In this document: positions 9,472 through 42,000 of the stretch, piece by piece
Layout of the letters: each line of letters begins with the position of its first letter
How positions within the stretch are numbered: position 1 is the stretch's first letter
DNA from: Lingula anatina
Lineage: Eukaryota; Animalia; Brachiopoda
NCBI GenBank assembly: GCA_051362555.1
Contig: CM120649.1
Coordinates: forward strand, 10,540,001 to 10,604,000
Length of the DNA: 64,000 nucleotides
Direction: 5' to 3'
The notes under the pieces: model-generated
What the model saw: the letters and a program-made list of their open reading frames with translations, nothing else
The model's database searches: none
Told to the model about the DNA's origin: nothing
Program-made: the position numbers and the translations under genes

Positions 9472-11710
9472 CAGCATAATCAACAACTGTGGCCTTGGTT
9501 ACAAAACTGCGCTTCCCCGTCGCCAACGCTCTCAATTCAGGTCTATCATTTAAAATAAAATGTTTTATTGTATAAAATATAACATGCATAAATCCATAGA
9601 CTTCGGTCGAATAATCAAGCTGTGTGTAATACTGTGCTTGAACCCAAAAATTATGTTATAGAATGAATTCGCCCCCCCTCCCCCGCCCCGCTTTCTACCA
9701 TACAAACTCAGCATGTAGGAGTGCGAAAGCCATTTGAAAGTAGGTCAAAAGCTCGCGGATAGCATGTGCCATGGAAGGGTTCTGAGGGGAGATAGGTTAT
9801 CTCTATTTGCGTTTTTCTATTCTGCCAATTTTGAGTGGAAATATCAACATCTTTCATTGAAATTGGTCAATATAAGTTCAAATAATTCAATTTTCTTTCC
9901 TTTACCAAGTTATTCACCAGATGTTATAAATACAACATTTTCCTAGAAAACCTTTACCCCCTTTTGTGAATCCAATGTGCTATCAGCAGAGCACCTGCGT
10001 CTGACACCACGCTGGATGCTCCGCGCTCCCCGGGAGCTGAACAGTTAACGCGGTCCGCAAATTTTAAGGGAGAGTCAGATGAAATAGAGAAGGACCGAGG
10101 CATCTATAGAGTCCTACATGGTGAAGCTGAAGATGTGGGCTAGTGTTAATCCCTTTTTAAAACTTTGCAATATAATTTGCTTTCAGTAACCCCATGCAAC
10201 CAAAACATTTTGCTAGCACCTTGATACCTCCTTCACCACTGTCTCCCCCCTAAAACGGTCTACACTAAAAAATCAATAATCGTATGGCAATTTTATACAG
10301 GCAATTGACCTACTTTTATACCCATGCAGCTAACATCGAGTTTTATGGGTGTAGAGTGAAAACGTGATACACGTCTGTGATATAAAAGTTATTTCTAATT
10401 ACATAATTTACAAACAGTCCATGTGGATCAAAAGTGTCTCGATTTGTGAGCGAAACGGATCATTACTTTTTGAAAATAATGAAAAAATTGGAGAAAAGCC
10501 AAAAAAAAAAAAATTAATTTTTTCTCTTATATGCAAATTAAGTCCCCTGAAGTAATATATGACTGGCCGGAAGAGATGTTCAAATCAAAGATTTGTAATG
10601 ATAATGATCTTGATGGCCTTGATGATCTTAATGGTGATTTAAAAAAATCTTAGCAAAGTTTTCCGTTGTCATCTGGTGTGAAAGAAATTTTCTGCTCTAA
10701 CACAATCATTCCACAAGTGAAGAATACATAGTAAACGCGTTTCAGAGTTGTGCTGCAGATGACACTTTTGGGTGAAAATCGCATGCCTAGGATATTAGGT
10801 TATAATTATGATATATAGGAATAAATGCGTGTCTAAGGTTTCCATTAAAATTTTGACTGCATTTCTATTTATGTGTTCGACAAGGGTGAATTTTATTGGG
10901 ATATTTTCTCTCTTTCTCCATCTCTCCCTTTTTTAAGCGAAAATTAGGCATAACAGTCAAAATATTCAGAAGTAAAATTATTTCAAAGTTTACAATCTTC
11001 TTGGACACTACAATTCTTCGTCGTGGTGGTTCACGGGGAAATTTTTAAGACAAATTGTAATTGTATAAATTGATAATCATCCGATTACGCGCTTCTGTGA
11101 AAAATGCTTTATCAATGTATCCTGCTTTTTTGCAATTTCCACTGAAATTGAAATCTACCTTTTCCACCTCAAAAATACAAGCTTTTATACGGTTTCATGA
11201 TGTCCATAGCTGTTACTTTGTTGGTGGTATAAAATACCTTGGGTATCGCCCCTAAAATGTATACAAAGCGTCTTAGAAATTGATTTATTCTATTTTCAAT
11301 AAAAAAAGATGTTCCTGCTTAAAGTTCTTTATGTATCTTATGTAGAAAGTGAAAACAAGTATATAAATAATTTTTATTTATTTATTTTTATTTATTTTTT
11401 TATGTTTTGACAACCAGACAGAATTCGCTGGTTAAATAAGCCGCCACTTAGTACAAAGGGAAAGGGTTAAATTCCAATTTAAAAAAAAATCTTACTTTGT
11501 TACATGTTTAGGCCGACAAAATGAGTGATTTTCGTAGATACTTTGGAATAACTAAATACAAAAGAACAGAACAAACTTTGTTATATATCAATCGGAGGTT
11601 TTTCTAATTATGCATGGAAATATATGGAAATGATCAACAATAAATGTAAAACAATAACAATAGAAGTAATCTTAACTCAGCACTGACAGATTGACATACA
11701 TATCATCCTC

Positions 11711-14422: not shown

Positions 14423-14888
14423 GGGTTCCCATTCCTAGATGGATCAATCTGGATCGGTCTAACTCCCTGGGGATTCTCACTAAATTGCTATCAACTTAAC
14501 CGGCTTAAATGTCTGTCACGCCTACCGAATCAGCTAGGGGGTAAAGATAATTACCCCCTAACAGCTTTGCTAGGCGTGACAGACATTTAAGCCGGTTAAG
14601 TTGATAGCAACTTAGTGAGAATCCCCAGGGAGATAGATCGATCCAAATATCTGTGGGAATGGTCCCTATTAGACTGCATTCCCACAGAATTTAGATCGAT
14701 CTATCACGTGGGAAGTCTCACTAGATTACTGTCAGCTTAGCCGTCTTAAATGTCTGTCCCGCCTACTAAAAGCTGTAAGGGGGTAATTAACTTCTGTGCG
14801 CACTCGGCTGACAGCAATTTAGCGTGAAACCCCAGGGAGTTAGGTCGATCCAGATGGATCGTTCTAAATCTGTGGGAATGCAGTCTAA
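14423..14888. mobile_element. Two adjacent related fold-back MITEs (14423-14666 and 14669-14888), probably PIF/Harbinger-like
   Basis: First element has long arms CCCTGGGGATTCTCACTAA..CCGGCTTAAATGTCTGTCACGCCTA / TAGGCGTGACAGACATTTAAGCCGG..TTAGTGAGAATCCCCAGGG. Second is bounded by TTAGACTGCATTCCCACAGA...TCTGTGGGAATGCAGTCTAA. A related fragment lies at ~45475-45565. Confidence 0.75.
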
Positions 14889-16592: not shown

Positions 16593-17028
16593 CTAGCATT
16601 ATTATTCCCACCATATTCTTTTCTCCATAGCTCATGAAGAAGTTTTCACATTTTATACAATTTGTTTACATATTTAGCTCTACTCTATGTATAATTTATA
16701 AAACGGTCACAGAGAAGAAACCACAATATATTTCAGAACTCAATGAACTAATCAGCGGGGACGCATATTACTACGACTTTATGTTGAACGGGCTTTTATG
16801 ATATTTGCACTAAAGCTCTGGAATAATTTACCTACTGATTTTACAAGAACCGTATATGACTAAGAAAGTTTTAACAAGTTTATTGTAATTAATAAAGCGA
16901 AGTATTGTTGTTTTCGATCTTTTATCCTTTTGGTCATTCTGAATTACCATTTGTTACTCTCAGACTTATGACTTTAACATAAAAAACTATATGATCAACA
17001 TACCTATCGGAAGTATATATGTATTGAG

Positions 17029-17116
17029 ACGTTTTTCTATAGCCTTTTTCTAAAAATGTAAGCCCTACCTTATATAAGGTAGGGCTTACATTTTTCCAGC
17101 TCTATAGAAAAACGTT
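17029..17116. repeat. Palindrome with a perfect 44-bp core (17052-17095)
   Basis: AAAAATGTAAGCCCTACCTTATATAAGGTAGGGCTTACATTTTT, extended by ACGTTTTTCTATAG / CTATAGAAAAACGT. Confidence 0.85.
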
Positions 17117-17139
17117 TTCTACTTACTGAGGGTTATATG

Positions 17140-17470
17140 GCGTTGTGATAGACAGGTATCAATCAAACACATACAGTTTAATTCAATCTTGATGAAAGCT
17201 GTCTCAAAAGCACACTACTGTAATTGGCGGTTTTATAAACAACCGTCAATCACAATCATTACGCTGTTGTTAACCATAGTCGTCAACACGTAAAATTCCA
17301 GCTTCCTATATCCTTTGATTGACATGGTGTCAATCAAATCCATTCAGTTTTGATAGCTGCTGTCAAGTAATAACAGCTTGATTGACGGTTTATATAAACA
17401 AACGTCAATCATCGCGCATATGATTACTATAGCGGAGAAACAGAGAGTACGCCGAAAAGACAGAGCGCTA
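17140..17470 (+). mobile_element. Interspersed repeat with internal ~160-180-bp tandem subunits; inverted copy at 48496-48970
   Basis: The terminus CAGAGAGTACGCCGAAAAGACAGAGCGCTA matches the reverse complement of TAGCGCTCTCTTTCGGCGTACTCACTG at 48496. Both share TTGATAGYTGCTGTCAAGTAATAACAGC subunits. Confidence 0.7.
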
Positions 17471-18589
17471 TCTCAACAAGTCTGTATATAGTTTAAGTTT
17501 AGACAATTAAAGGTAATATGTTTCCCTAAGAGAATACATACAGCTATAGACATACAACCCCCGTTTCTTCTCGTAATGTATAATATAACATGTTAGATTA
17601 TAAATTAAAATACTTTGTTATAGGACGAGTTTAGACAGAAAAATAGTTTAAAATCAAAGGGTCTAGTACAGAAGCAGTAGTATTGCCCACTGAGATAATA
17701 TAAAGGGATGATTGGGATCTGTTTAAGTAGTTTGAACTAATTATTAGTTATTGAACCAGCGCTAGACGTCCTCACACTCTTCCCTGTGCTGCGTTTATTC
17801 GATACCTGCTTGCTGTTGTCGTCTCTAATGCCCATCTTTTTAGGTAACCAAAAGGTACACGAGTAGGTTGTTATGACGTGCAAACATTTTATTAATCATT
17901 CCTTTCAAAGTTTTTCTAAATAACGACCCCTGTCTTAAACTACCAAGTACGTCAGTTTTTAAGCGCAGTTTTAATGTCTAGTATTGTTATATTAAATGCA
18001 TAGTCTTTTTTTTTTTGTGCTCTCCTTCTGTCGCTGGGCTGTCCGTTTCCCGGTCGCCTGTGAACGAATCTTCATGGAGAGCACAGTCAGCCCGCGAAAT
18101 AATGTGAATTATAAATATATGATTTTTTAAACAAAAGGATTAAATTATTTTTCATGGTTACAGTTTTAATATCCGGGTGCCTTCTGTGTGAAGTGTTATG
18201 TTAGAGATACGACGTATGTTATATTTATAAGTGAATATATTTTATATTCCCTCGGTTGCTTATTGCACGTCAAGTGAAAGTAATCAAGACTGCGGGCCAG
18301 ACGAATGCAGACCCTTTTAGTGTAAGTTATCATCTCTCTCTACTTGTACAAGTTTTCTCATAGTAAACTTAACCTATGTCATCAGATACGATATCGATAT
18401 CCCCGGGCAGTACTTGTAGACGTTTTAACCGGCAAAACTTATGGATTTCTCATATATCAATTATAATATATCGGGTTTTTAGTATCTTTTTCTTGTTACC
18501 CCATTAAAACGGGTTCTGGCGTTTGTCTATACTTGTTTTCGTTTTCAAGATTGTATTGATCTATGTAGAGCTGATATATAACTGGTTTA

Positions 18590-19150
18590 AAAGCAATGTA
18601 TCGGCCGATTCATGTGTGGTGCCATTTTTCAACGAGAGCCGATATTGAGATTTAAGAAATTATCAATAAACATCCCCAAATTCGAGCAGACAATAGCCGG
18701 TTAAATGAACATATATATATACAGTTCACAGTAGTGTTGATGTCAACTTTGATAAAAGAATATTAAAAGCACCCCGGGTGCGTTTTTGTGTGTCACAAAT
18801 ACATGTGTTTTGCCGTATTGCAACAAGAACCGATATTGAGGGTAACAAAATATTAATAAGCATCCCCAAATTCGAGAAGACGTTAGCCGGTAAAATGAAC
18901 ATATATATACAGTTCACAAAAGTGTTAATGTCAACTTTAATAAAGGATTTTAAAAGCACCCCGGGTGCGTTTTTGTGTGTCACAAATGCGTGTGTGGTGC
19001 CATATTGCACCGAGAGCCGATACTGAGAGTAAAAAAATATTAATTATCATCCCAAAAATCGCGCATATTTTAGCAAGTAGCATGAATTTATACATAAGGT
19101 ATACAGCAGTGTTGATGTCATATTTATTTAAAAGGTGCATAAAAAATACC
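18590..19150. repeat. ~185-190-bp tandem repeat, about three diverged copies
   Basis: CCGATAYTGAG...CATCCC(C/A)AAA at ~18640, ~18830 and ~19017; AAAAGCACCCCGGGTGCGTTTTTGTGTGTCACAAAT occurs twice. Confidence 0.85.
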
Positions 19151-20380
19151 AGCCTAAAAGAAATGTCAGCGAGCCTAAGAAATCGGAGAGAAATTGCGTC
19201 ATTTGAATTCAAGACACGATTGAAGGTTTCTTTACTGCCGCATCTCAGGCTAATTTGTCACACTGAGAGAAATTTTCGACACTAGAAACATTTTCCTATC
19301 GAATCATAGCTAAAACAAGTATACTACACTACAATTATACAATTTTGAATGCTCATTTTACGGCAACAAACAAGATTGCCTTTACCACATAGGGGATTTT
19401 GCTCCATGAACAAACATGTCAAATTCTCACATAGCTTCCAAATTGATAGAATAAATTGTACTTATACTTAATCTCTATAAGTTTATTGTCTCATCTACCC
19501 GAAGGATTGCCTCACGTTATCGCGAACTACCTGCCCAAATGACACAAAAATTCATCGACATGCTCGCTACCTGAACGGGAGGTCACGTGATCCGAACGCA
19601 CATGGTTTCATGAAGAGCTCGCGCTAAGCCGATTATCCTTTGATCTTAATCCACGTTTCACGTCCTTTCGTTATTATGTCCAAGGTGCACAGATAAGAAA
19701 CTGGACATCAATAACCTTTTTTTCGGACATTTTTTCTGGGGAACAGATATCTGATATACATCATCCCGGACCTCGGACGGTTACATCAGCAGCAGGGCAG
19801 GGTTGATGTTTTTTCAAAAGTAAATTGGTAAAGTTTGCAAGTTGACCTGTCCGTCACCAGTCTAACTCAAAAAGCTATGGATGGATTTTGATGAAATATA
19901 TAGAGACAAGAAATGGGCTAGACTTTGGTGGTGATTAATTAATTAGTCCTCTTCTTTTAATACATACCTGTAAATTGAATTTGAAAAGAAAACCCGCCTT
20001 TTTTTCTTAAAAAAAAGTCTATCAAACTACTCAGCAAATGTAAAGAGAATACAAAAAGTCCATTTTTTTTTGGGGGGGGGGGGGAGGGGAAGGGGCTACA
20101 TCTGTGTAAAAAATAAATGAATTCAGAGTGTTTTATTCCGTATGAGTTTTCAAAGGTACAAAACAGTTAACATACAAAAGCTATCTTTGATTTTTTTTAC
20201 TTTCTATATTATAATTATACTGTGCATACTTATTAATTTGCATGAAAAACAAAATAGAATGGATATTACTGAATATAAGTCAATGATTGTTCTGAAGTCT
20301 GTCTTGTCAAATATTACAAATACATAAAATTAATATGCATAGCAATTGTTCAATATGCATGAAAACAATATATGAGCATA

Positions 20381-23300
20381 TCAAATAATTGGGTTGTGAA
20401 ACTTATTTCTGTGCTGTGGAAACAAGAAGAAATAAAACTGAACACAGAAACACTTGATTGGCTGAAAGATGAAGAAGTCTTCTAGTAAAGACAATCCAAC
20501 AAGCATCAACCAGTGATTAACATGGTCCTCTGGCAGTGACATTCCATAAATGGCAGTGAGGGAAAATGACAGCATGATAGAGCAAAACAGGAAGATGAAT
20601 ACGATGTATTTCACCCAGTGGGGAAAGGACTTCTTGAACTCTCCTTTCACCATTCTTTCCAGATGTAACAGTTCTTTGTCACTCAAAGGTTTGTACTCTT
20701 CATTTGACTGTTCTGCCATCAACTCATTCTCATCTGAATTATCTGGAATAAAATGGATTTTTTTTAAATTTACAAAACCACTAATTAATGGAAGTTAGGC
20801 AGTTAAAATATTATATGTTAATCTTGTCACAGACTGCAACAATATCAAACATTAAAATCAATTCCATTAAAGTTTTACAAAATCATCAAACTAGTCTACA
20901 TGTTTTTGTACATTAATTTCTAAATCCTGGTATGATAAAACAAATATCTTATGTGCCACAGTAAAAAATACTTTGAAGGGTGTCTGTTTGGGAGTTATTT
21001 TGTTTCACCGAAGTGTGACAAATAAATAAATAAATTACCTTCTTCAACTTGAATAACTACATCATAAAGGTTGCCCTGAAGTGAAGAGTCAAGGGCACTT
21101 GTAGGAATGATCTCAGTGGTGCCATATTTATCCTCTGGTAAATCATTTACAATGCTGGCTGACTGTTTACCAGAGTCTTGGACATCAGCCACACTGTCAT
21201 CTACTGAAGCAGAAATGTCACAGCTCTGAATGTCTCTACTGTAAGCAGCATCCAACTCCTCTGTGATGATAGCACTCAGTTCACTGGTAGAACTTGTGGA
21301 GAAAACATTTTCTGTGATGTCATTTGCCAGATCCTGAGTGTCATCCACTGATATCTGTGCTGTAACCTCATTTTCCACCTGATAAGTTGCTGTGACGGGG
21401 GTGGTCATTTCTGCTGGCACAACTTCTGGCACAGGTGCTGTCATACTTTCTGCCATAAGAGCTGCTGTAGTTGCTGACACAGGTGTTGTCATTCTGACTC
21501 CATGTGGCAGAGCTGCTTCAATATCAATATCAACAACATTTGGTGGACATAGTGGAAATGCTGCATTATCTACATTTTTTAAATCTTTCTCTTCTTTGTT
21601 ATCTTCCTTCACTGATACTGTAGACATAACTTCATTCACAAAGTACACAGTTGCAAGAGATGATGGGGTTGTCATATCCATAGCACTGGGTCCTGAGGTT
21701 TCAATGTTACATTCATCATCCTGCACCTCTGGGCTTAGTTCAGCTGTGTTGTTTACTTGGACAACTTGACTATTATCATTGATGTCAACTAAAACAAAAC
21801 ATTCACATTCAATCATTATTGCAGCCATTGCTTGATCACCTTGTGCTGCTTTCTGAACAATAAGATCTAGAATTTAGAGGGATAACAACTTTCATTTTGG
21901 AGCGAAAAACTGCTATAAAACATTTTCAGGGGGTAAACGACAATGTTCCCATAATCCTTTCCAATATTAAGTGTGAATCCATTGTTTTTTCTAAGTGTGT
22001 TTTTATGTTTCAATCTCCTAAGAGATTATTACAGAGGGTAGCCATCTATAAAGATCCATGTGGTACTCTAATGGCAAGCACATAATAATTGCAATAACTT
22101 CAGTTTTGGTGATAAAATTGAATTTCTTATATTTCTTTGTGCTGTTTACAAGGTTTTTATTGTGGAATTTTAAATATCATAAAAAGAGTTGCTTTCCCTT
22201 TGACAAATGAAATTTGTTCACTTTTTTGTAATGTTATGCAAAATTGGAAATTCATAATGCAAAGTGTTTTTCACCATTTTTGATAAATGCATAATTCCAG
22301 ATCAATGTACAGTCAGTAGTAATCAAACAGACATAAAATATTAGGCAGTGATATTTGACAGCTGACACAAAGAAAAAAACATAGAAAGTGATAATTTCAA
22401 ATTTACCTGTCCCTGTAACAAAGTTGTCTTCAAATCTCAGGCTGCTTGAGATATCTGCTCTCAGCTCTCCCCATGTGGGTTGTCCTGGAAACAAAATCAT
22501 ACAGAAATAGGTTTATGGTCTACAGTAAAAGAGTAATAAGTTTCCATTTAGGGCATCAATAATTAAATGTGTATAAGCTGTTTGTTTACGTGCAAGGTCT
22601 AGCGTTGTTGGATAAGCAATTGATTCAGGTTGCTGATTAGATTTTGGTAAGATAAACTCATTATGTAAAGCACTATGTTTATGAACACACACATGTATGT
22701 GTTTGTATTAATATGTAAAAAAACTAAAAAAAGAGACAATGGCATATGCATACTTTTCAGCACTCCCAGATTCTCAAAACTCTTGAAGCAAAGAGTAGAT
22801 GTGCTTCTTAAATTGCACAAAGTGGCCTCACTAGATCCAGGAGGGTTTTTCATTGAATCCAAACTCAGGCTCCTCCTTGGTGACCAACTTTCTGTGGCTC
22901 TTGCACGTCTCTCTAATGACAAATCATACTCTAGATTCCTCAGGTCTTTGAATTCTGAAATATTACAAATAATTGGGTGATTTGTCATGTGGAAAGGATT
23001 AAGGAGTGAAAACATATATTGGTTAAGACACCATTCATTTTTTAAACAATTGCACTTTTGATTAAAATCACAAATCAAATTATAAATACTGCTGAAATAT
23101 CAAAAGTTTATTTCAAAACAATATAAATTAGAATAATTTTAACTGTCTTTTAGTTTGAAGTGCATATTCATTTCTGTGTTTTATGCTGTTTCTTAGCATA
23201 CATTACCTTCCTTAAACTGCACTTTATCAGTAGAGAAAACAGAGGAGTCTGACTGACAACTTATATCTGAACACAGTGCTGATTGCTAAAATGGAAATAA

Positions 23301-26300
23301 AAGGTATAACTTGCTAGCCCTGTTATAAACAATTGGAATTATCTCTGAGTCAGTGAAAAATGTCAGTTTAAAAAAAATCTAAAATGTTTTTAATCAAATG
23401 ACTGACATATTTTAACAAATCATCAAGCTTAATATAAATTTTATATAACACTCAGCCAGCTAGTACTCATTAAAGGAAACAGTCATCTAATGTTTAAAGA
23501 AAAGCATCATACAGAGCCAATTCTTTTACCTTTAACACTGAGGTCGCCACAGATTTTGCCACCATCTTGGCATCATTGACAATGGCTACTTTCAAATCTT
23601 GCTCACCAAGGAATACATCTCCCTCTGCATTCTGAGAGAGCAACCCTATTTGAAAACTGTCAGAGCACTCATCCCAGCTGTAAAGATTATTCAAAGTGAT
23701 TATTTTCCATTATACACATTTGAACTTCTTATACACTAATCAACTCAAAAATATCTGCACTGCTTCTCCTAAAATTTGTTTAATTTTCAATTTTTCTTTT
23801 AAATAACCAACATTTTTTAAGGCTAAAAATGAATTTACAGCTTAGAAAATACAAATATAATACACAAAAATATTTAACTTAACAGTAGCAGAACATTAAC
23901 TAAAATATTTAAATTTTTATCAAAATATAAAATCTCTAATGACAAAATCATATCTCACTTTTCATCATAAAATGTCAAAACATCCTCTTTCAGGAGGTCA
24001 GCAGCTTTGGCAATGACATGCTCCTTATCTGGCCAGTCCAGGTCTTGTGACTTTGATTCAGCACAGTGGAACACAGCAAACTGTGCTCTAATGATGGCAT
24101 TGGAAATCAAGCTATCCACATAGTGGTAGTTAAAAACCTGCAATGTGTTATATAAGTTTATAATTTCTACTGCCGAAAAACATTAAAAAAATTCATGACC
24201 TTAAAGCAAATAAACAAACAAACAAACAAAAACAAAAAATACATGAAAAATATATTCCAAATACAGGGTTCTGCCAAGGTCTCAAAAAAGGGGGGAGAAT
24301 TCTCCCCTCTGAGCATAAAAGTTGGGGAGATTTTGAGAAATAGTGGGAGATCAGGAAAAATGATATTTTACGTAAAAACATACACTGCTAGTCTGGTATT
24401 TTATTAAAGTTCACAAACTGAACTGATTCAACTTTGAAAGTAACTTTACATAGGCAGTATGTATATACAGTTGCAAATGATTTTTTTATAAAGCATCTGC
24501 CTCATTATCATAGCAGAGCCAAGAATAATCTCTTAACCAATCGTGTTGAAATTTCTGTGGCACTACTTTCGGTTTCTTTCTTTCAGGCCCTTTGATGGTA
24601 TTTGGTCTGCAGACCTAAAATTAAAGAAAAGTTAAAATTTTTCCTACTTACAAACTTGTAATTTCTGGAACCAGACACCACAATCCAAAAGAATTTTTAG
24701 GTTTTGATGATTAATCATGACTAAATTAACACTTTTATCAGGAAAAATTGCATAATAGTGTTTGGGAAGGACATTTTTATCTTTGATTTATCAGTTTCAC
24801 AATATTGACTACTTTTTAAAATAAAGGCTAAAGTAAAAAATATAGGTCACACATTTGATTGAGTGCATTCTATGAAAATATCCTTGATTAGGAGGCCCTA
24901 ACTTTTTTTTTTTCAAATTACTAATTAGTATCCTCACACACATATACAGAGGAATAAACATATCAGAAACAGGCCTCCTTACTTCTTCATTAAAGTTAAA
25001 CATTTCCTTTTTTTCAAATTTTTATTCTCACACACACACACACACACACATATATACACTATAGAGTGATAGGAATAAACATATCAAAAACGGGCCTCCT
25101 TACTTTTTTAACTTCTTTTTCATATTATCATACTCACATATAGAGGAATAAACGTATCAAAAACGGGCCTATTACCTTTTTTTTTACTTTCTTTCACATT
25201 TTCAAACGAAGTGTCAAGTGTCCTTCCAAAACGTAAAATAAAAATGCCACGGAATGAACATACCTTTATCGTCAACGAACTGTCATTTTCATCTGGAGTC
25301 GCAACTTCAGAAATTTGTTTCTTCCTTTTCTCAGACTTGTCAGGCGGAGAGACGGATTCATCTGAGGGGGGATTAACAGGAGTCTGACCTGATTTTTCAC
25401 CGCTTGCCGTAGACTTTGGCATAAAGCTTAAAATCGATCTTTGTTTTTTAACTTTCGTTTCGGCGAGGAAGCCGCCATTTTAACCACGCTTCATCAGGCT
25501 GAATATCACTGTCACGCCGTCTATCATTTGGTTGACTATCCCGCGAAATGAGAGAACCGCTCAATCGCTCAACTAACTTTAGTGCAGCGGAGTCACACGA
25601 GGATTGCCGATTGGACTGTAGTCATGAAGAGGTACTATTGATATTACGACAACAAATGACGACGCTGCTTGAAACGATCTCTTACGAGGGTACATCGGAA
25701 ACACACACATGACGACGTTAGCTACACTGTGTTAACAAGTCAATGCAGCGGACGATGCGAAGAAATTTATACCGGTGATGATTATTTAGATAAACAATTT
25801 TAGACGCCACTCTCAATGTGTCTTTTATCATCTCAAGAACAATGATAGCACCCTCACTCGGTTTGTATGCGAGAATTTTCGCATCTTTGGTAATTTTTGT
25901 GCGAGAATTTTATTTTTTTGGCGAGAATCTCGCAGAATCGCGGCCTCGGCAGAACCCTGCAAATACAGTAACTGCCAAATTAAAATTAACTACACTGTGG
26001 TGTCCAAGTTAATGAATTTAAACAATACTGATCATGCAGTGCAACATCCCTCGTACTATGTACCTCTTTGATAAAGGTTGTCTTATCATTCCTGATATCT
26101 TGCATTTCTTGCTTCATCAAGTTGTTAACCTGGTCTACAAGTGTATGTGGATACTGGACCTCTCTATCCATGCATTGTGTAACTTGGCATTCATCCTTTT
26201 CCAGTTCCTGGGAATAAAATTTAATGTATAGATTCAAATATGACAGATAATGAAATATGGAAAAGAATGAAATATGGAATTAAATTTTAATAATTGTAAA

Positions 26301-29300
26301 AAAGAGAAAATTCAGTAAAAATAAATATGCAGAAAATAAAAATTGCAAATGGGTTTAAATACTGTTACAAATACAAGTAAAAAAAGCAAAACATCAAAGA
26401 TATGTTGATAATTTTGGTAACTAGCATATATGTATACATGTAGGAAATACATATGCCAAGTTGACTTACTTTCACTGTGGATCTCTTTGCAGTGCTTTGC
26501 ATGTCATCATTCATCTTAGCAGAAATCAGCTGCACAAGGGTGGCAACCAGTTTCTTTGAGAAGTCTTGCATGGCTTTCTGACTGGCCTCAGTTGCAACAT
26601 CACATACATCATAAAATGATGCAAGTAGGCCATGTGTTGTTCCTAGGGTGAAATCCTTCAAAGTAGCCTCTGTGATCTCTTCTGGAAAGTCTGCTTGATA
26701 CTTGTTTACATGACACACAGCATTCACATCATCTGCAATGATTTTGGCAACAAGTTCACCCAAGGACAGATAGGGACTGGGTCCAAAGGCTGCAGTGAGG
26801 GCCATTTCTTCATCTGAAGCTGTAAATTCTGTGGATGGGTCACTGGTCATATTTGCCCTCAATTTCCCTAATGCTGCATCTTGCCTCTTCTGTACAAGTG
26901 CCAGGTTAACTTGGATGGCCTCCCTGAGGTGGTTGACTGATGTAGTAGAAGATGTCTTTGTCAAATTACGTCCATACACATAGCCAGACTTTTTCTGTTT
27001 TAGCTTCAAATCAAGGAGAGATGTTCCTGTTTGTGCACCAATATCTTGAGTGACCTTCAGTGGCTTGTGCTGGTCTTCAACAAAGTTCTTCTCCAAACTG
27101 TGTAGAGAAACTGTCTGCACAGATGCCTGTACATGATCCTTCAACTGGTACTGCTCACCACTCAGTTGTATGTAGTTGCTCAATTCATCCTCCCACACAT
27201 TCACCAGATAGGACCAGTCTTCTACAACTGGAAACACTGCCATCTTTTGTCTCATTCTTGTGAAGATGGAATTCTTATCTCCAGCACCATTCATTTCTAA
27301 CTGGGCCAAAATGTGTACAGCAACTTCCCCAATCTCATCAAATGGAATGTTTGCATCAAACACATTGCCTGCTCTTCCTGCCTTGGTCTCCTCTCGGCAT
27401 AGTACTGGTGCACTTTGGCGGTTGGTCATGAAGCCCATAACCTTGTTTTGCCAACATAGGATGTTGTCTTTAGTTGGCACCTGCGCTGACTGGTATTCTA
27501 CATGCCTGGTGTTCCCCATCATAACATTGAGCATGTCATGGATGAGTCTACTGATAAATCCTGTGGCTCCTTCCTCAAATTCTGGCAAGGTAACTGCTTT
27601 CATTTCTTCCTTGCCTGATACCTTGTCATCCATGTTGGAGGTTTTTGAAGACATCGCATGAACTAAAGATTTTGCCAATGAAGATTTAAACTTGAGGGCA
27701 GATTTTAGTCCTTGGGTCTTCTTAGCATTTCTGTTCTGCACAAACGCAATATCAGATGGAGCCAAAGATCCCACAAATCCTCTCCTTGCAACCCACTGGG
27801 GACTAATCTTTAAAAGTCTTTTCATCCATGTATTCTGCTCACTCTCTGGTAAATCAGCCAGTTTCTCATCTGGGAACCATGTACTGCTTGAATCATCTTC
27901 TCCATCACTAAAAGATTCCCCTTCCTCAATCATGTACTTTAGTTGTGACTTGGCCACTCCCATATAGACAAATAGCCCTTCCACAATGTCCCTTAGAGTT
28001 GACTCTTGTCCTCTGGCTGGAGGGTGTGTACATTCCAGCTGAACATCTTCCCCATACTTACAATACCAGTGACATAAATAGGGATCTTTAGGTGACATTG
28101 CTCTCTTACACAGAAAACAATCAGGCCGAGCATCCAGCTCTTCTTGACTTAGGTTGGTCATCATCTTCTTACGATACTCTGCACTCAGTCTCCTGTTAAA
28201 CCAATCATGCCATTCCTTGTTCTCCTTCTTATCTCTTCTATTTTCAGGTTTCTTGCCCTCATCGAGTTTCTCCAGGATCCAAGCAGGATTGATCCTCATC
28301 ATTTCCCACAGCCAGTACTCACACTCAACTGGTCTCATTTCATTCATTTTCTTTTGTGGGAATGTTGTACCTTTACCATTCACCAGTGTTGGGTCAGGCA
28401 ACTTCATGAAGCCATAGAGAGATTTAACCTCTTCCTGCAGGGTTGCATCTTGACCAGAGATGGGAGGTGTAGCCAAGCCAATCTCAACAGCACGCTCATA
28501 TTTACACAACCAGTGGTAAGGGTATGGATATTTCATATCTACTGGCCTCTTACATAGAATGCACAAAGGCTTGATACCAGCATCTAGATGTTTCTGCTCC
28601 AGAACTGACATCATTGTTCTTGGACATGTTTGAAGAGGTGCTTTGGCTGAGTTCACATCTGTTCCTTTGGCTCCTTTGCTGTCATCTTCAGTGGCATTTT
28701 CTTGTGGTTTTTGGTTCTTGCCATTCTTTTTGCTAGGTCTTCTGGCATTACGATTGTTCTTATCCTTTTTAGGAAGCTTCTGGCGATTTTTTGGTGGCCT
28801 CTTCGTCTTTGGTTTCTTCCCACTTGAAACCGGTTCCTGGTGATCCAGTGGGATTTCCTGAAAGGCAGTGTCCCCAGAAAGAGGTACCTCACCAAACCAT
28901 TTTCCAGTCATCAAAGGAATGTCACCAAAAATAATGTCATCGGGTGACAGTTGGAGCTCTTTATCCTCTTGGCTTGGCTTGGCCTACAAAGATAACATTT
29001 GATAAATATCAAGCAATTCATCTGCATTGATTTGTTATAAGGTTATAATATAAGAACTAAATGGTTATTCATAAAGCAATATATGTTTAAATTGTAAGGA
29101 TAAAATAAATAAATATCAGTTTTTAACAATCTTTATATTAAAATTATTGGCCAGTCAATATCTGCTCAAATAATCTGGCAAGGAATGGGTTTAATGCATC
29201 CTGCCCATTTCTGTTTCACTTGGTACAAAAGTAATTTACCTCTTTCTCTGCCTTTGCAGCACCTGTGCTACTAGAATAAGATTCAGTTAACAAAATTTAG

Positions 29301-32300
29301 AAAGTGCCATGCAATATCATTCAGTAGTTCCGTAAGATAACTGCATCTAGGTATTTAGGTCTTTACATGGTACTGCCTCAGTTAAACACAAATTATAAAA
29401 TAACTAATTAAACTTGTTACTATTCTATACTCAAACAGTAATATGATGAATGATTATATCTATATATATATATCGTTATTACTATTTATTTTTTTTATTT
29501 TTTTATTTTATTTATTTATTATTTGCATCAACTTTTGCTGGATCTTAGCACTGCTAACACAACGCTCAATTTCAAGTTACCAGTATAAGCAAATGGAGTA
29601 TTTCAGGACTTTCACATTTAGAGTAATTACCTTTAAAACAAAGCATTAATTATTCTAGTAAGAAAAAAATTGGTAAAAGTGATCTTACTTTGTGGCACCT
29701 TGGCCTCCAATTGCACCACCCTGTTCACTATTGCCAGCATCACTTGCATTACTGGCAGCACTGCTACTACAAGAGGCAGTATTGTTGTTGTTTCTATTTC
29801 CACTTAAAATATACACCTCTGAAGAGGATCTTGACCTGTAACATATGCAGTTATATGTCTTTAAAAAAACTGAATCAATTTCTTGCATGGTAAAAATATA
29901 CTACTACAGTTATGAATACTAGATCTTTTAAAAGGGGTAAATTGTGAATTTTACAGATACTTTATTTCTAAAGTCATATTTTCTTTTAATTAGGACATTC
30001 CTATTCAATTGTAGCAACAAGAGTAAAAAGCAGGCTACTATATACTTGGCTATTGTATGCAGTAAAAACACCAAAAATGCTGCATAGAAATATAAATTTT
30101 GTGATTATCAAATTTTGCATCTGAAAGTTTGATCATTTTTGCCCATTGAAAAGATTGAATTATTACCATACTTCAAAAATAAAACAAAAATAAACAAACA
30201 AAAAACATTAAATATATAACTGTTTCTTCTACGAGTCACTCTGACATGTAAACATAATGTTCATTGTAAAATGTAATAATTACCTCTGAATGCTGCCACA
30301 TATCTTTCTTTCATGGTCATAAAAAATTTGACTTCTGCTCTTAGGGGGGAAAATGGATGATTGTTTGGAATCAATGTCAACCCTGCTTTTAAAAGAGCAA
30401 GCACCGGAGTCTTTGGAGTGAACGTGTTGAACTTGGCTAGCACTCCAGGATTGGGCTGAAACAATTTAATTTACATAACCTGAATAAGATTTAAACATTC
30501 AAATTATATTAAATATCTTAGGCATACAATGTAGCATACCAGCAAACCACTACCACCCCTAATAGATTACATTTCTTCAATTCCCAAAATAACATTTCAA
30601 CAAACCTTTTGTCAATTTTTCCATATGGTGGGCCTTTCTTTGATTTCTGTTGGTGACCACCTTGTGCTGAACTAAGGAGGACTTTCCTGTGAAGATATCC
30701 TGGCATAGTTCCTCAGATCTTATGTTGCCCAGGACAATTTCACACAAGCAATTTATAAGGCAGATGATGGTGTTGATCAGAAAGGTGAAGAAGAATATGT
30801 TAGCTGTCAACTCTACAGCAATTTGGCTGCTGATGGTTAGGAGGGCTGTTTCCACTAACATATTTCCAAGTAAAGAATTGCCAACTGCAGAAAACAGCAT
30901 CACAAGAGTGAGTGGCCTGGAAAGTACTTTGTTGGAATCCTGTCCACTTCCAAAAAATGGATAAATCCATCGATGATACTGACGGAAGAAACATAATATG
31001 GAGCTCCAGACCAAACTGAAATGTACATGCAAATACACATAAATGCCCATCATAAATGTGTAAAATAAAATGCACAAAGAATCACGTAAAATAAATTTGC
31101 ATAAAAGTGTTTTCTTTTCAGAAAATTAAATTTAAATTAAATAAAGTGGTTTCTCTTCACTTATCAATACTTCATAATATTAAGACATTCTTGAGTGTAA
31201 AAGACACCACTTGAATTTAGCAAATTTGTTTTTATTAAGATGACATTTTTTACAATTTTTCAGAAGGTATAACATATTTGTGTCACTCCTCAACATCAGT
31301 GACACACATTTTGTGGTCATTTAAAATCATTCAACCCACGGACAGCCCAATCCCCAAGAGCACTGAAATTCCAAAGTGCCCATGCACTTTAATGATGAAA
31401 TATATACTAAACACCAAAGATTCACATTCCTCACTCTAATGGTATAGAACAAGATAGCAGAATAGCAATTTGAAGAAAATTAAGAATTATCCATCAGGGA
31501 CAGCCTAAATCCTAGGCACTCTAAAAATCAAAAGTGCTCATGCACATACTTGATGATAGGTTTATCAATAGGGATATGGGCCTAGTCTAATTTTAATAAC
31601 ACCCTGCGTAAGGTTTTGCCTGTGGTGACCAAGTTTCAGAAATGTTCAGAGGTCAGTAGTCTTTGTTTAATAAAAAAATGACATGTAATGGTAAATTTCT
31701 AAAATTTGCACCTTAATATCTAAAAATTTAAGGTTACCTCTTGTAATAAACAGCCAATACTTATGTTTTTACTTCATCTTCTGTATTCTTTCATATATCA
31801 TGGGGGGGGGGGTTGTCATAGAATCGACTAAGATACTCACTTTTTGGTGGAATGACCCATCTTTTTAAATAAAATTCTTGTTTCAGTGTTAAATTTAATA
31901 CCTTTTGCCCTCATCTTTTCTCCAATAATATGTTCAGATCAACAATGGCAGTTACAGCACTCAAAAAAGTGACTATTAAGTTACTTACCAAAATGTTCTG
32001 CCAGCATCTACCAAGGCCAGGGTATGTGTTGCAGGGCCTTCCTTACTAGTGCGCTGAGGTTTCAGCCATTTATTGCAGGAAAACAGCCACTCTCGATCAG
32101 CTTGAGGGTCTGACACAATGACAGAGTCTAAATGCCTAAAATTATGACAAATAATTATTTGAAATTTGATATAACACCAAATCATAGTTTTAACTTAAAA
32201 AGTGTCAAACATATCTGAAAGAAAGTATGTAGTATTTATATCATTGTTTCACTGATAACTTTTATTCCACCAGCTTTTCACATTTCACCATTTCACCTTA

Positions 32301-33517
32301 CTCTACTAAAGCCATGATCTTCCATGTTTTGTTATATACTTGATGACACATAACAAATATAATCCCCCAAACCATTAAAAAAATGGTATGTATTGATTAT
32401 AAGTTGATTATATCTGTGCTGTAATATAGTATATACCATAAAATACTAGCAAGCAATCTAACACCAATTCCTTTTATCATGCAAGTGAACATACCATTTC
32501 CCTTTGACTCCATGTCCTTCTTGAATTATCAGCACATGGGACAGTTCTCCAAGGGGAACTGAAGTTAAAAATTACACAAAACTTCTGTTCAGGACAGCCT
32601 TATATCAATATTTTTTGTTTAAAAAAATATGTTAATATTAGTCAATTTCAGAAACATTCATTTGCAGTATAATGTACGTATCGCATTTTCACTCATACAT
32701 GAGGCACTTGGATAAAGTCATAAAATTATTACTCACCAGTGCTGTATACTAAAAACATGGTTTCTTTCCCCCTAGAGAAGATATTCTGCTTGGTCCCATG
32801 GTCTTTAAGTAAATATTCTTGTGACTTTAAGTGCTTGGAGCACAGTTCCATTTTGATTTTTGCATTGGTTCCTGCATCTAGTGTTTATAAATAAATATCA
32901 AGTTAATTACATGACTAAAAAACAAGAAGTAACTAGGTCTTTCTCATTCATTCAAAATATTGGCAGATAAAATTTAAAAATTATTGCACATATAATCAAA
33001 CAAAAATATTGTCTCATTTTCATACATAAATAATGTCTAATTCTTATAAATCATGACAAAAATTGCTCAACATACTGCCCTTAAAGAAATGCATGATGAA
33101 TTAACTTTACAAACTTGTTGATGAGATGTAGGGGGAAAACAAATCCATAAAATATTGAATTTTACTTCATTCCATAAAGGACAGAATGTTATGGTTATTT
33201 AAGACATGGAGAAAATTTGGAGATACTAGGGTCGGTTGGACCTACACTACAAGAAACACTGCAGCAGGGCCTCCCAATTCTGAATGAAGTATGAATGAAG
33301 TATTTTAATTCTGTAAATCTATATTTATTGTTACGCACTGTATTTTCACATAAAACTTGCCAGTCCAGAGCACCTGCATTATCAAAAATCTTGCCAGTCC
33401 TCTGGTATTTCAAGCAGTCACCACCTGTCAGATAGGCAGTTTCCGCATGTCTGGCCATTAGCATGGCCTTTACTTATGATAACATAATATATTCTGTAGT
33501 TTTTGCAAGGCCAATTT

Positions 33518-33577
<60 letters not shown>

Positions 33578-34915
33578 GCCTTGCAAAAACCACAGAACAT
33601 TTTATCCATTTGGTTAAAAGGCACTTACTTTTTCTAAGTCCAGTCTTAACGGTGATAATGTATGCATAGTGTCCATGAAGATTAGGGACAGCAATAATTT
33701 TTGACTGGAAAAAAATATATATATGTTTTCTGAGTGTAAATAAAAGAACATCTAGATCTGATGGTTTCTTGATACTGAAATAAAAAGTATATTAATCTGT
33801 CAATCCTAATGAAGGCATCACATTAATTTTATCAATTAAATCTTCAAACAAAACATATAACAAAAGTAAAAAAGAAAAAGCATGGGATGAGAAAGGGGTA
33901 GTTGTAAATACCTTTGTCTTAATACGATGATGAAGTATAGCAAAACACCCAACAAAGAATATAAAGATGATAGCCAGAATGCAATGAATTGTATATCCAA
34001 CTGACTCAAAGCTAGGTGGAGGAATGTGTATGAAGGTGTGCAGTAGCCTTTTATCAACAGCCATTCCCAGCTTGGGAGGACTGAGAACTAAAAGAAGGTA
34101 AAAAATAAAAGTAAATAAACTGAAGAAAATGTTAGTAAGAATAAAAAAAGAAGTTTGTTAGTAAGATTAAATACTAAGAAACATAATTGTAAAAAATTAA
34201 TGTTGGGTGTAGATGTTTGAACTAAGCACCACTGGACGACACTGGATGACACTAGAGCTAGTGAGTCTTACTTTTATGTGATTCAAGATATACCGGAGGC
34301 TTTTTACGTGAAATTTATGACATCACTGATTTAGTTGTCTTACCTCTGGCTTGCAATGGTGGTATTGTGCTGTCATCTATTCTTGGTGGGAAGGTACTTG
34401 ATGTTCTCACACTTCTTGCAGTTCTCACAGAAGAGTAGGACCGAAGAAGTTTCTTCATAATATCAGCCCCATGCTGACCCAAGAAAGATCCAACCCCAGC
34501 ACCAGAGGGTAAGGAAGTTCCTGTGTCAAGAGTTAAATGGTATGTCAATACTAATGACAAGAAAAAAAAAACTCCATTGTCAACTTCATTTTCAGAATTG
34601 TTAAAATTTTACCTTTAGTTCATTAACAATTTAATAGCAGAAATTATACCAATGAAAAAAGACACTATGATAGTTACTGTTAATACAGGTAGCCTATAGT
34701 ACTGAAGCCAGTGAGGTGTGGTTTCCTTAGTAGGGGAATAGCAGGTCTCGTGAGCGTATTTCCAGTCTATGTGAAAAAGAAAGTCAGGCGAACAAACAAG
34801 AAAGTCAGGAGAACATACCAGTTTTGAAAATTCAAAAGTTACCTTCTTGGACTGTAATCGCCAAAACCACAAATGTCAACAAACAGTTGACAACGGTCCG
34901 GCTTATCATCTTCAT
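20381..34915 (-). CDS. Polycystin-1-like (PKD1L/REJ-family) PLAT-domain membrane protein, truncated architecture (SP-TM1-PLAT-TM2/3-giant loop-TM4/5), ~2058 aa, 20 exons
   Basis: GT-AG, phase-consistent exons: 34843-34915, 34344-34550, 33912-34087, 33629-33704, 32737-32877, 32495-32558, 31989-32135, 30606-31015, 30284-30455, 29689-29835, 29240-29270, 26470-28983, 26064-26207, 23959-24137, 23530-23677, 23207-23285, 22754-22954, 22407-22484, 21039-21866, 20381-20742 (sum 6177 nt, divisible by 3). PLAT motifs YAYIITVKTGLRKNAGTNAKI, FSRG, PLGELSHV and WHLDSVIV..WLFSCNKWL. Post-PLAT YHRWIYPF motif. PKD1L-type TM4/5 motif FPHWVKYI..AIYG..HWL..EDFFIFQPIK. AATAAA at ~20132-20137 on the minus strand. 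Confidence 0.85.
24264..25959 (-). mobile_element. Non-autonomous hAT-like DNA transposon (internal deletion derivative with decayed TTF-type zinc-finger transposase 5' exons) in intron 13 of the polycystin-like gene
   Basis: TIRs CAGGGTTCTGCCAAGG / CCTCGGCAGAACCCTG; 6-bp direct repeat CAAATA on both flanks (24258-24263, 25960-25965). Minus-strand exon MAASSPKRKL-(frameshift)-QRSILSFMPKST..LTIK|gt at 25264, then an exon from ~24614 reading ..PQKFQHDWLRDYSWLCYDNEADAL* (ZnF_TTF-like F..W...Y.WL.Y). Confidence 0.85.
26470..28983 (-). CDS. Giant 2514-nt phase 0/0 exon 12 of the polycystin-like gene: basic K/R-rich segment, two C-x2-C-x12-H-x2-C repeats and a helical region
   Basis: Lies in the frame of the 849-aa ORF 26365-28914 and extends it 5'. 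Acceptor ctttgtag|GCC at 28983; donor AAA|gtaagt at 26470. Confidence 0.9.
29476..29638 (+). repeat. Dispersed ~170-bp repeat, copy 2 (intronic)
   Basis: Near-identical to 5938-6105. Confidence 0.85.
31989..33704 (-). CDS. PLAT/LH2 domain exons (4-7) of the polycystin-like gene
   Basis: Translated exons give the PLAT_polycystin-type consensus Y-x-I-T-V-K-T-G..AGT-x-A-x-I..F-x-R-G..P-L-G-E-L..W-x-L-x-x-V-x-V..W-x-F-x-C-x-x-W-L. Confidence 0.9.
33492..33597. repeat. (TA)n microsatellite (33520-33575) enclosed by 20-bp inverted repeats
   Basis: TTCTGTAGTTTTTGCAAGGC ... (TA)~28 ... GCCTTGCAAAAACCACAGAA. Confidence 0.85.
34615..34766 (-). CDS. Putative alternative cassette exon giving a ~74-aa signal peptide plus single-TM microprotein
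   Basis: Acceptor tttctttttcacatag|AC at 34766 is in phase with exon 1. It encodes DWKYAHETC..YRLPVLTVTIIVSFFIGIISAIKLLMN*, and the donor AAG|gtaaaa follows at 34613. Confidence 0.5.
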
Positions 34916-39038: not shown

Positions 39039-42000
39039 CTAATGGTTTTTCATTATATCTAAATAAGCTGTAACGCAATCAGATACAAATTTCTCCGCAG
39101 CTCTTGCCAATTCTGTCTCCAGATTTTCAAACAAAGTGTCCACAATGGCAGCCTTTTCCTCATCGGTCCGCTGTTGGTCTAGACCACCAATAAAAGTGGC
39201 GTAACTCCAAGCCTTGATGCTATTCACGTATCTCTGTGCGCAGGAACTACCCTTCTCATTATCTGTGTGGAGAATAAAAAGAACTAACTTATTAATGATT
39301 ACTGCCGAAAACCTACAGTGTTCAGCGTGTCAGAGAAATATTCAAAAGGCATTTTCTTCATTTGAGACTTGGGGTTCATTCCCAGTGAAACTATCGTTCT
39401 ACATCAATCGATCCCACTCCGCGGGCACTCGCTGAATGCAGAAAGATTAACAGATAAACACGCCTTCTCCTGGGTAGAAAACAGAAAAGCTGGTGATTAT
39501 ACGAGTGCGTTGGAAGCACGATGAGGCGTGTTTATCTGTTCATCTGATTGCATGTAGCGAGAGTCCCTGCAGAGTTGGATTGATCTACGTAGAACGATAG
39601 TTTCAATGGGAATGGCCCCTAATAAAATGAATGTCCTTTTTATATATGCTTTAAAACAGTCATTTCAAAAATTAATACAAGCTACCGTAATGGTAAAGAA
39701 AGAATTAGTACAACAAAATTATTTAGGGCAGCACAATTTTCCGTATTATTATGTACCATGGTTTCACAAACGGAACCTTAAAAAGTTTACTCATTTGTAT
39801 TTATTTATTTTTTTTTTGTAGGCAAGTAGCTAAATTGTTTTGTAATATACGTACAATGTGGGCTAGTTTTACAAGATCGAGAGCTTTACTTCTCTAATAA
39901 AACACCTTTCTGGCCATTACTTGAGAAAAGTTAAAGTGTGTTCAACCTTGCTGTATCTCACCCTCGTACACTATGGCATAATCCAGTTCTGTTATTTCAG
40001 TTTCGATTGAAATAAGCCTTAATCCCACTTTGGCCACCTCAGAATCGCAACTTCGAAATGGCGCAGCCAATTCCTCTACTGACCGAAAGTATGCGCCACA
40101 GTTCGTGTCATCAAATTCCGCCTACAATTCAAAAAGGTAATGAACATTTGAGACACAAACGAAGCGCCACAGGCGTTTTTTCTTCCCTAGAAGTGCAATA
40201 TATATTGTATTAGATGGTTCTCATTTTTCAAGATGACTGTAAACCTTTTTTCGCACTGTCACACACACACAATCGGTGAAACGAAAATGGACCCAGAAGA
40301 AGAAATCACTGTGATTTTGAAGGGATGACAACTCTTCGTATGAAATTCAAAATTCCACATAAATGCTTTGCAAACAAAACTTAAAAATGTAATGAAAGCA
40401 TTTTACCACCGAAACGGCGCTTAATCGAAATATCTGGATATCTCAATAAACTTATAACGTAGGAACTATTGGTTAGTTTGGAAAAATTGTCGATTACCCA
40501 AGGGAAATACGTATTATGGCACTTTTCCCGCCAAAATGAAGAGTTGTCATCCCTTTAAATTTATCAAAAGGAAAAGGAAATTTAAATTTATCAAAAGGTA
40601 AATGGATAGCCCCTTGCGACAGCTAAAGATAGCACGGTTGGGTTAAGTTATAAAATATAATATGCAATATAAAACACTCAAACTGACCTTGCTTATTATA
40701 CCATCTGCAATGTAGGACCACCACTTGTCTCTTAACCATTGGAAGACATTGGTCTTCAAATGTCTCTTTGTACTGTACATTCGTCCTTTGTTGATGGTAG
40801 GTATCCCAATGATAAGATGTCCACCTTATATGTAAATCATAAATACTTAGTATTAGGTTGGTAAAATGATTAAATAGTGTCAGATGAAACAAAACGTATT
40901 TTCCACCCTTAATCAAAACACACTGATTACATGACCGAATCGTCGATGTGAGATCCTGAATGTGAATGTCATTGGCTTCAATCGTGTGATCAAGGTCTTT
41001 AAATGTGAAGGACCGGAACGCCTTGTTTAATTGGGGAAAACATGTTTTTAAAAATTTTCTTTAGTAAAGATTAACTATTTTACCCTCATTACACAGGACG
41101 CCCTCGCAGTATCAGATTTTTTTAGCAGAAACATCCATAGAATGAACTGGTCTGACTAAATATACTCGTGTGATGTATAAACTACGTATTTTGAGACCTT
41201 ACATTTAACGTCAAGTTAAAACAAAAAAACACGGTACATCTTGTGTTTATACCATACCGAACACAAATTTTTATAGTGATTACCTGATTGGATTATTATG
41301 TATCATACATATGTACCTGGCTTTAACTCTTTGGCCCTGTTCAGTAAAATCGTTTCCCAGTCACTCTTGGCCACTTGTTTATACATTTCTAATTCTTCCT
41401 CACTGGCTCGGGATCCGTGACAAAACACCTCTTGACGAAGCTTGCAGGGTCTATATATTTGAACATTTTGTATTTATGCACGCCATATCGGAAAAAAAAC
41501 TCTATTTTCATGATTGATGTACTTTAAATAATTATCAAGAACACTAAGTACGGCCTCTTTCGTGTTTAAATATCATAGGAAATAAGAAAAAAATTTAGAT
41601 GGACATTAAATGATTAACCATATATGTGATATACGTTACATGTAAAAGCGCTGCATATAAAAGCAATGCATATAAGATTAAACATTCAAAAGTTAGTCAA
41701 TGAAATTTCAAGCTGAACTTCTTTATGATGATTCGTGGCACATTACAAAAGTCAGAAAACATTCACTTGTACAACATCCATCTCGCGCTCAATGCAAAAT
41801 AATAATAATAATAATAATAATAAAATAATAAATCAAAATAAAAAATAAAAATAAATAAATATATAAACAATGCCACACTTATGAGTACATGAATCGTTAA
41901 GCCAATATAATAAGAAATTGTTGCACTGAACTTTCCTCTTGCTCAGCCACTGCATAGCATAATTGGATATGGCCAGGTCCACGTGATTTGGAGGTAGACA

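Follow-up and report, generated by a model that had tools for sequence, protein, structure and literature searches.

The closest described relatives of the gene analyzed here are the proteins of the polycystin-1 family, i.e., human PKD1 (PDB 6a70 chain B), PKD1L1-3 and PKDREJ and the 11-helix SpREJ3-6, that share a signal peptide, a first transmembrane helix (TM1) followed by a PLAT domain, TM2-3, a loop, and TM4-5 with an (E/Q)P(L/I/V)K kink. In polycystin-1 (PC1), TM1-5 make up a peripheral domain, and the channel domain is formed by TM6-11 (PMC7728438, PMC8357825). The gene in question lies on the minus strand of a 64,000-nucleotide stretch of Lingula anatina (Brachiopoda) DNA (GenBank assembly GCA_051362555.1, contig CM120649.1, positions 10,540,001 to 10,604,000 of the forward strand), which is termed the window and in which all positions are counted. 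It encodes the same parts as those proteins up to TM5 and, unlike them, has no REJ, PKD repeats, GAIN/GPS, TM6-11, TOP domain or coiled-coil tail. We consider it on balance probable that this is an intact gene of a small paralog family, whose five-helix TM1-PLAT-TM5 core anchors a predicted cytoplasmic scaffold of ~1,570 residues and does not form a channel.

Channel-less members of the PKD1 family were described earlier in the sea urchin: SpREJ1, 8, and 9 have one helix, SpREJ2 two, SpREJ7 six and SpREJ10 none, and these proteins are transcribed (PMC1934368). Judging from the helix counts given there, SpREJ7 is probably the PLAT-bearing one. They resemble the Lingula protein in lacking the channel half, but they keep a full, partial or split REJ and, with the exception of SpREJ10, a GPS, and their bulk is extracellular (PMC1934368), whereas the bulk here is a predicted cytoplasmic loop. 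Surveys of planarian, abalone, crayfish and Platynereis mention, in the text available, channel-bearing forms only. A literature search, thin on subscription papers, figures and supplements, brought up no publication that describes such an architecture or the Lingula genes concerned. A preliminary description of the locus had spoken of an undescribed polycystin-derived class; the architecture is indeed unreported in the literature found, but "class" is too strong a word, since channel-less SpREJs have been described (PMC1934368), the family is already in RefSeq and its known members come from Lingula only. Canonical membership of the polycystin-1 family failed (no REJ, GAIN, channel or coiled coil), yet the protein is derived from this family, being a real and apparently lineage-restricted variant of it and likely a membrane-anchored scaffold.

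Gene model and polycystin-1 membrane core

The exon chain, rebuilt by hand, runs from the ATG at 34915 to the TGA at 20381 and consists of 20 exons whose introns all have GT-AG borders (19/19), giving 6147 nt with one stop and a protein of 2048 aa. The 20 phase-consistent exons proposed earlier were recovered; the ~2058 aa proposed with them apply only when an alternative exon-2 acceptor 30 nt upstream, which adds 10 aa, is used. Exactly one frame is open in 13 of the 19 exons preceding the last one, and it is always the frame used, and the open frame of exon 12 is 838 codons long, the longest one found in 300 shuffles having 170; the gene model is therefore not a product of chance. All exons but exon 1 align, at least partly, to one or more of three Lingula database proteins, referred to here as P0001, P0002, and P0003. 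The features of the gene are the following:

20381..34915, minus: whole coding span, 20 exons, 2048 aa (rebuilt exon chain)
34843..34915, minus: exon 1, ATG and predicted signal peptide (hydropathy peak 1.98; the start of P0003 is also hydrophobic, with no sequence alignment to it)
34344..34520, minus: exon 2, short S/T/P/R-rich ectodomain (single open frame, continues the signal peptide; 26/59 residues align to P0003)
33912..34087, minus: exon 3, conserved juxtamembrane stalk and TM1 at about 33933-33989 (54% identity to P0003, 59/59 residues; missing in the P0001 and P0002 models)
33629..33704, minus: exon 4, PLAT start (exon chain and alignment to relatives)
32737..32877, minus: exon 5, PLAT (Pfam PLAT E 0.0074)
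32495..32558, minus: exon 6, PLAT (exon chain and alignment to relatives)
31989..32135, minus: exon 7, PLAT end (Pfam PLAT E 0.025)
30606..31015, minus: exon 8, post-PLAT helix, TM2 at about 30853-30909 and TM3 at about 30742-30798 (hydropathy; 51% identity to P0003)
30284..30455, minus: exon 9, polar loop (95% identity to P0002)
29689..29835, minus: exon 10, S/N/G-rich loop (100% identity to P0002)
29240..29270, minus: exon 11, 31-nt micro-exon, the least secure exon (11/11 residues align to P0001, 55%)
26470..28983, minus: exon 12, 838 aa, basic stretch, two Cys/His repeats and predicted helical core (open frame, homologs, predicted structure)
26064..26207, minus: exon 13, helical core (38% identity to P0003, 81% to P0002)
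23959..24137, minus: exon 14, helical core (51% identity to P0003, 100% to P0002)
23530..23677, minus: exon 15, helical core (48% identity to P0003)
23207..23285, minus: exon 16, acidic/serine-rich loop (81% identity to P0002)
22754..22954, minus: exon 17 (exon 17-18 junction in 5 reads that carry close-copy letters)
22407..22484, minus: exon 18 (reads and alignment to relatives)
21039..21866, minus: exon 19, acidic, T/P-rich, likely disordered (86% identity to P0002)
20381..20742, minus: exon 20, TM4 at about 20549-20605, long TM5 through QPIK at about 20420-20512, 12-aa tail and stop (58% identity to P0003, same end; aligns to human PC1 TM4-5)
20132..20137, minus: AATAAA, candidate polyadenylation signal (motif match)

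The order of parts is a signal peptide, a cysteine-free ectodomain of ~90 aa, TM1, PLAT, TM2-3, a loop of ~1,570 aa, TM4-5 and the stop. A Kyte-Doolittle scan, used here in place of a dedicated signal-peptide or TM predictor, gave a signal-like peak at residues 4-22 and TM peaks at 117, 321, 358, 1975, and 2018, in line with the signal peptide and five helices that had been expected. The PLAT domain is placed directly after the first TM helix by Pfam, by fold match and by the PC1 alignment; over exons 4-7 the gene is identical to the close copy P0002, in which Pfam PLAT is matched at E 6.3e-17, and the PLAT fold predicted for P0003 matches the PLAT domains of lipoxygenases and lipases (Z 8.0-8.5, root-mean-square deviation about 3, 96-113 positions aligned). 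P0003 aligns to human PC1 (6a70_B) at E 1.5e-5 in two stretches, i.e., TM1-PLAT with the following helix, and TM4-TM5. This alignment argues for the origin proposed in the preliminary description, namely that the protein derives from the TM1-PLAT-TM5 module of PC1, a derivation that is supported at the level of sequence. Exon 20 alone reaches PC1 at E 0.19, and exon 8 alone gave no match, TM2-3 being assigned by position and hydropathy.

The stop lies 23 aa past QPIK, close to the ~20 aa first estimated, and the AATAAA at 20137 follows it by 244 nt. In P0003 the tail QPVKCLFIHFYFMVF, with the residues following QPVK, is aligned on PC1 EPLKVLLEALYFSLV, so that the tail after QPIK is the second half of TM5; intron read-through was rejected as its source, given this match to the last part of PC1 TM5 and its conservation in P0003. 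With the stop at the end of TM5, the chain therefore ends where, in PC1, the channel half is known to begin. The ESM Atlas provided leads only: for exon 20, clusters without a name at 0.94, most of them from haptophytes and of low recognition, and PLAT/GPS fragments at 0.91 for TM1-PLAT-TM3 of P0003. Picornavirus VP3 matches to exon 20 (E about 0.008) were treated as chance.

Missing polycystin parts and the juxtamembrane stalk

The channel half and the large ectodomain were looked for in all minus-strand frames of at least 38 aa in 1-20.4 kb and 34.9-52 kb, plus five further upstream, and no Pfam match to PKD_channel, polycystin, REJ or GPS was obtained in 122/122 downstream and 93/93 upstream frames. 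True PLAT exons of 46-48 aa, which served as a control, scored only E 0.007-0.025, therefore shorter or more diverged channel or REJ exons could escape the scan. P0002 and P0003 gave no Pfam match to the channel or to polycystin (TOP) either. It had been claimed that no channel exons lie in the 20 kb downstream, that both REJ/GAIN and the channel half are lacking, and that a domain search should report PLAT but neither REJ, GPS nor PKD_channel; the scanned frames are in agreement with all of this, PLAT being the one of these four domains to be matched. The stop after TM5 also appears to be a true one, as had been thought, since two database paralog models have the same end.

By hydropathy, five TM helices are followed by the stop, versus eleven in the canonical PKD1 family, the end of the transcript lying outside read coverage. 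Only about 12 residues follow TM5, which leaves no room for the C-terminal PKD2-binding coiled coil. Because TM6-11, TOP and the C-terminal coiled coil are absent, the protein would, in the light of known structures, give no pore subunit to a PKD2 tetramer. A role as PKD2 decoy, one of those suggested before, was judged unlikely for a related reason: the surfaces for assembly with PKD2-type subunits lie in the absent TM6-11 (PMC7728438, PMC8357825). A ciliary or sperm role, suggested as well, finds no support in the present findings. One may ask whether the polycystin is split instead, so that a separate gene elsewhere encodes the TOP/S1-S6 half and two chains assemble in trans with PKD2. The end of the chain at the TM5/TM6 domain boundary would fit such a division, and the C-terminal half of PKD1L3 alone forms a working channel with PKD2L1 (PMC8357825); yet the same work indicates that this channel functions without TM1-5 and does not need them, and the scan of 20 kb on the downstream side and 17 kb on the upstream side revealed no TOP/S1-S6 exons. 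A split polycystin is, in our opinion, quite improbable.

The ectodomain is about 90 aa long and contains 21% S/T, 8% G, 12% P, 13% K/R and no cysteine. Of the ~100-aa S/T/G-rich ectodomain pictured earlier, the shortness and the S/T content are retained, but it is slightly shorter, glycine makes up only 8%, and proline and basic residues are more frequent than glycine; the absence of GPS cysteines was correctly noted. No GAIN/GPS was recognized before TM1, where there is no cysteine, no conserved HL-T/S and no GPS Pfam match, and where the sequence is too short. The stretch HTFIHIPPPSF, formerly regarded as a degenerate GPS-like sequence, makes a weak candidate, since the paralog P0003 has GSAHLYVPPPSF at this place. 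Comparison with P0003 indicates that the conserved part before TM1 is a stalk of ~30 aa and not a cleavage motif.

The stalk raises the question of a receptor, in which ~30 extracellular residues, possibly exposed by a convertase cut at RxxR, would sense a ligand or a protease and signal via the five-helix bundle to PLAT and the loop. The stalk is conserved like the membrane core when the remaining ectodomain is not, basic motifs are found upstream of it in both proteins (RTARSVR; KRVRLPR), and the PC1 stalk is a tethered agonist (PMC9672506). However, RxxR motifs are common by chance, neither a GAIN domain nor a conserved HL-T motif is present, and the PC1 stalk was proposed to act on the TOP domain (PMC9672506), that is absent here. 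A receptor is thus seen as rather unlikely.

The TM3-TM4 loop, its relatives and the predicted scaffold

The loop of ~1,570 aa occupies the site of PC1's own TM3-TM4 loop. The size of the ~1500-aa inserted loop proposed earlier was about right, but the loop is an expansion of an existing one and not an insertion at a new place; between the end of the first match to PC1 and TM4 there are 277 residues in the PC1 construct, 1164 in P0003 and about 1,660 here. The loop contains, in order, a basic stretch, two Cys/His units, ~570 residues of predicted long helices and ~400 acidic S/T-rich residues. The Cys/His unit is ~120 aa long with invariant C9, C12, H25, W26, and C28, and is found twice here and once in P0003:

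28228..28587, minus: repeat 1, CxxC-x13-H-W-x-C and helices, candidate zinc site (alignment; no Pfam match)
27763..28143, minus: repeat 2 (single copy in P0003, 43% identity; predicted local distance difference test, pLDDT, of the model 52.5, no clear fold match)

The spacing of these residues suggests that the unit may bind zinc. It had no match in Pfam or among solved structures, the best Z of its low-confidence fold model being 5.7, and an alignment profile gave no match among solved structures. In exon 17, about 45 nt contain 7 differences in the reads of a close copy, and 5 of the 6 codons concerned code for another residue, which suggests that this part of the loop is under weak constraint or changes fast.

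When exon 12, and not the membrane core, was used as the query of a sensitive search against 1.84 billion cluster representatives, three matches were returned, all uncharacterized Lingula anatina proteins. Word-based searches found no homologs outside Lingula (0/5080, 2/1947, and 1/16 candidates were kept); these negatives are weak, because one such search missed the close relative P0002. Canonical PKD1-like sequences were not returned by the homolog searches. The RefSeq proteins XP_013409301.1, XP_013418741.1 (partial) and XP_013396612.1 belong to the same family and are 83-97%, 91% and 37-57% identical by segment, respectively; in each of them PLAT is the sole Pfam match above cut-off, and all are annotated as "uncharacterized", none as polycystin. 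XP_013409301.1 and XP_013418741.1 differ from the gene here in being models without exon 3, one of them also without most of exon 12, and XP_013396612.1 in its longer ectodomain (about 300 aa) and single Cys/His repeat. P0001 is partial and has 912 aa, P0002 has 1341 aa, and both represent either close copies or alleles; in P0002 about 570 residues of exon 12 are missing as well, and this model may be chimeric or contain a gap. The old, diverged paralog P0003 (1764 aa) shows the same order of parts, from a hydrophobic N-terminus through an ectodomain free of cysteine, the stalk, TM1, PLAT, TM2-3 and a long loop to TM4-5, and its stop follows QPVK by 22 aa.

The stalk, TM1, PLAT, TM2-3, and TM4-5 are 51-58% identical to P0003; for the repeat and helical core the value is 38-41%, and for the ectodomain and spacers 26-30%. 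In the comparison with P0002, TM4-5 is identical at 86/86 residues, beside 318/368 (86%) in the acidic loop and 274/312 in the helical part. Fully identical TM4-5 next to a diverged loop may be taken as a proxy for purifying selection, and at the level of the family the same contrast speaks against a pseudogene, as was argued before from the intact splice phases.

How such a protein could work may be proposed from what is known of PC1. Following PC1 topology, the N-terminal ~90 aa would be directed outside by the signal peptide, PLAT and the TM3-TM4 loop would lie inside, and TM4-5 would rejoin TM1-3 as a bundle. The PLAT domain of PC1 binds phosphatidylserine, PI4P and beta-arrestin (cited in PMC9672506), and by analogy binding of inner-leaflet lipids and trafficking adaptors by PLAT might set the location of the protein. 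The conserved loop parts, i.e., one or two Cys/His repeats and ~570 helical residues, may bind partners or self-assemble, and the acidic and basic stretches may serve as flexible spacers.

Several observations weigh against an intact gene for an anchored scaffold and have to be set beside those above. The match of P0003 to PC1 is weak in each stretch taken separately (12.2 and 11.6 bits). The HDN motif of PC1 PLAT is QEG or LNG here, therefore the binding of lipid or calcium may not be the same. Bundle, zinc site and helical core are predicted only, with models that are poor outside PLAT: the mean pLDDT was 43.2 for P0003 residues 290-1460, a model confident only in PLAT that did not include TM4-5 and had its helices at about 50-60, and it was 52.5 for the repeat. 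All functional steps of the scaffold and anchor are inferred. Two of the three database models, P0001 and P0002, are without exon 3, signal peptide and TM1, either because such an isoform exists or through an artefact of modelling. The remaining adverse points come from RNA reads of four out of nine Lingula-labelled runs (X1, X3, X4, and X7), mapped over 16601-30100 with exons 1-9 outside this scope. Read depth at 20201-20650 is zero in 4/4 runs, as in some bins of exon 12. Among 12 codons with listed exonic read differences, 8 change the residue, in 8/8 cases to that of P0001/P0002 (42 further differences lie beyond this listing), therefore most reads come from close copies or alleles.

The same runs show that the gene family is transcribed and spliced: in X1 and X3 exons 12-19 are covered in part and thinly (about 0-2.5 fold), by reads whose direction fits minus-strand RNA, and five reads span intron 17, while X4 and X7 have no reads on exons within the range. 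The 5' and 3' ends of this very copy rest on the gene model. It is worth considering that the transcript differs from the model, with exon 3 skipped or a longer 3' end, or that the copy is a recent unused duplicate whose sister copy is expressed. In P0001 and P0002, exon 4 follows straight on exon 2, which is translated in another frame, the reads carry mostly sister-copy letters and leave the stop uncovered, and a transposon sits in intron 13. On the other side, exon 3 is intact, its splice sites are good and it shares 54% of its residues with P0003; its skipping stops the signal-peptide frame after 7 codons; the 2048 codons contain no frameshift or stop; one or two reads of X3 lack the sister-copy letter at several sites; and no GT-AG donor-like motif is present between QPIK and the stop. 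An altered or unused transcript is accordingly held to be unlikely, and an intact gene for an anchored scaffold is still preferred.

Genomic setting and meaning of the isolated module

Two further features bear on the borders of the gene:

24264..25959, strand not assigned: CpG-rich DNA-transposon remnant in intron 13 (16-nt terminal inverted repeats, 6-nt flanking duplication)
19801..34300, strand not assigned: CpG-depleted gene body (observed/expected, o/e, 0.10-0.15 outside the transposon versus 0.85-1.1 in flanks)

The CpG-rich patch at 25.2-26 kb sits within the ~1.7-kb transposon remnant, which we take to be hAT-like (Pfam returned nothing), and is neither a second promoter nor another gene of this system. 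Two genes fused across a CpG island were rejected for this reason and since the flanking exons are contiguous in P0002 and P0003. In X1 and X3 the RNA signal is deepest on the remnant, where it runs mostly against the direction of the host gene and probably stems from copies elsewhere. CpG depletion in invertebrates is a mark of methylated, transcribed gene bodies; here its lower edge lies near 20,000, just past the AATAAA at 20137, which therefore provides independent support for the proposed 3' end. At the other side, the nearest upstream gene, a methyltransferase-like one, ends near 39,040, about 4 kb before the ATG, so the room for further upstream exons is small.

The methyltransferase-like gene (39042-44111, minus) is spliced, is not CpG-depleted and matches Pfam Methyltransf_7 at E 8.3e-6 on one exon, its SAM-dependent carboxyl methyltransferase family being best known from plants. 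A sodium/hydrogen-exchanger-family gene, presumably TMCO3-like, occupies about 52000-64000 (minus), with PF00999 on three exons and a CpG-depleted body (o/e 0.18). A tandem satellite lies at 1-4970 (~960-nt period, 1921-nt higher-order period at 98% identity, ~190-nt subunits), and long palindromic or inverted-repeat elements, likely of the MITE type, at 8383-8598, 9325-9472, 14447-14793, and 39377-39614. Rfam gave 0 matches.

The role of the five peripheral helices and PLAT of PC1 is poorly defined. A natural protein that keeps exactly TM1-PLAT-TM5 under strong constraint, with both neighbours dropped at structural boundaries, would mean that this module is useful alone in an animal, and the folding, lipid binding and trafficking of the module could be tested on it in a simple form. 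Genes of this kind would escape surveys of TRP channels and polycystins that are based on the channel domain. What limits the finding is its narrow range so far, with Lingula alone, and the earlier channel-less SpREJs. A bolder and more doubtful idea is that the PC1 core became a free-standing signalling unit, with a short conserved stalk outside and a Cys/His repeat and helical scaffold inside, i.e., a receptor-channel turned inside out. If this were true, nature would have provided, in the Lingula gene, an experiment that shows the five peripheral helices of PC1 at work with neither the sensor nor the pore.

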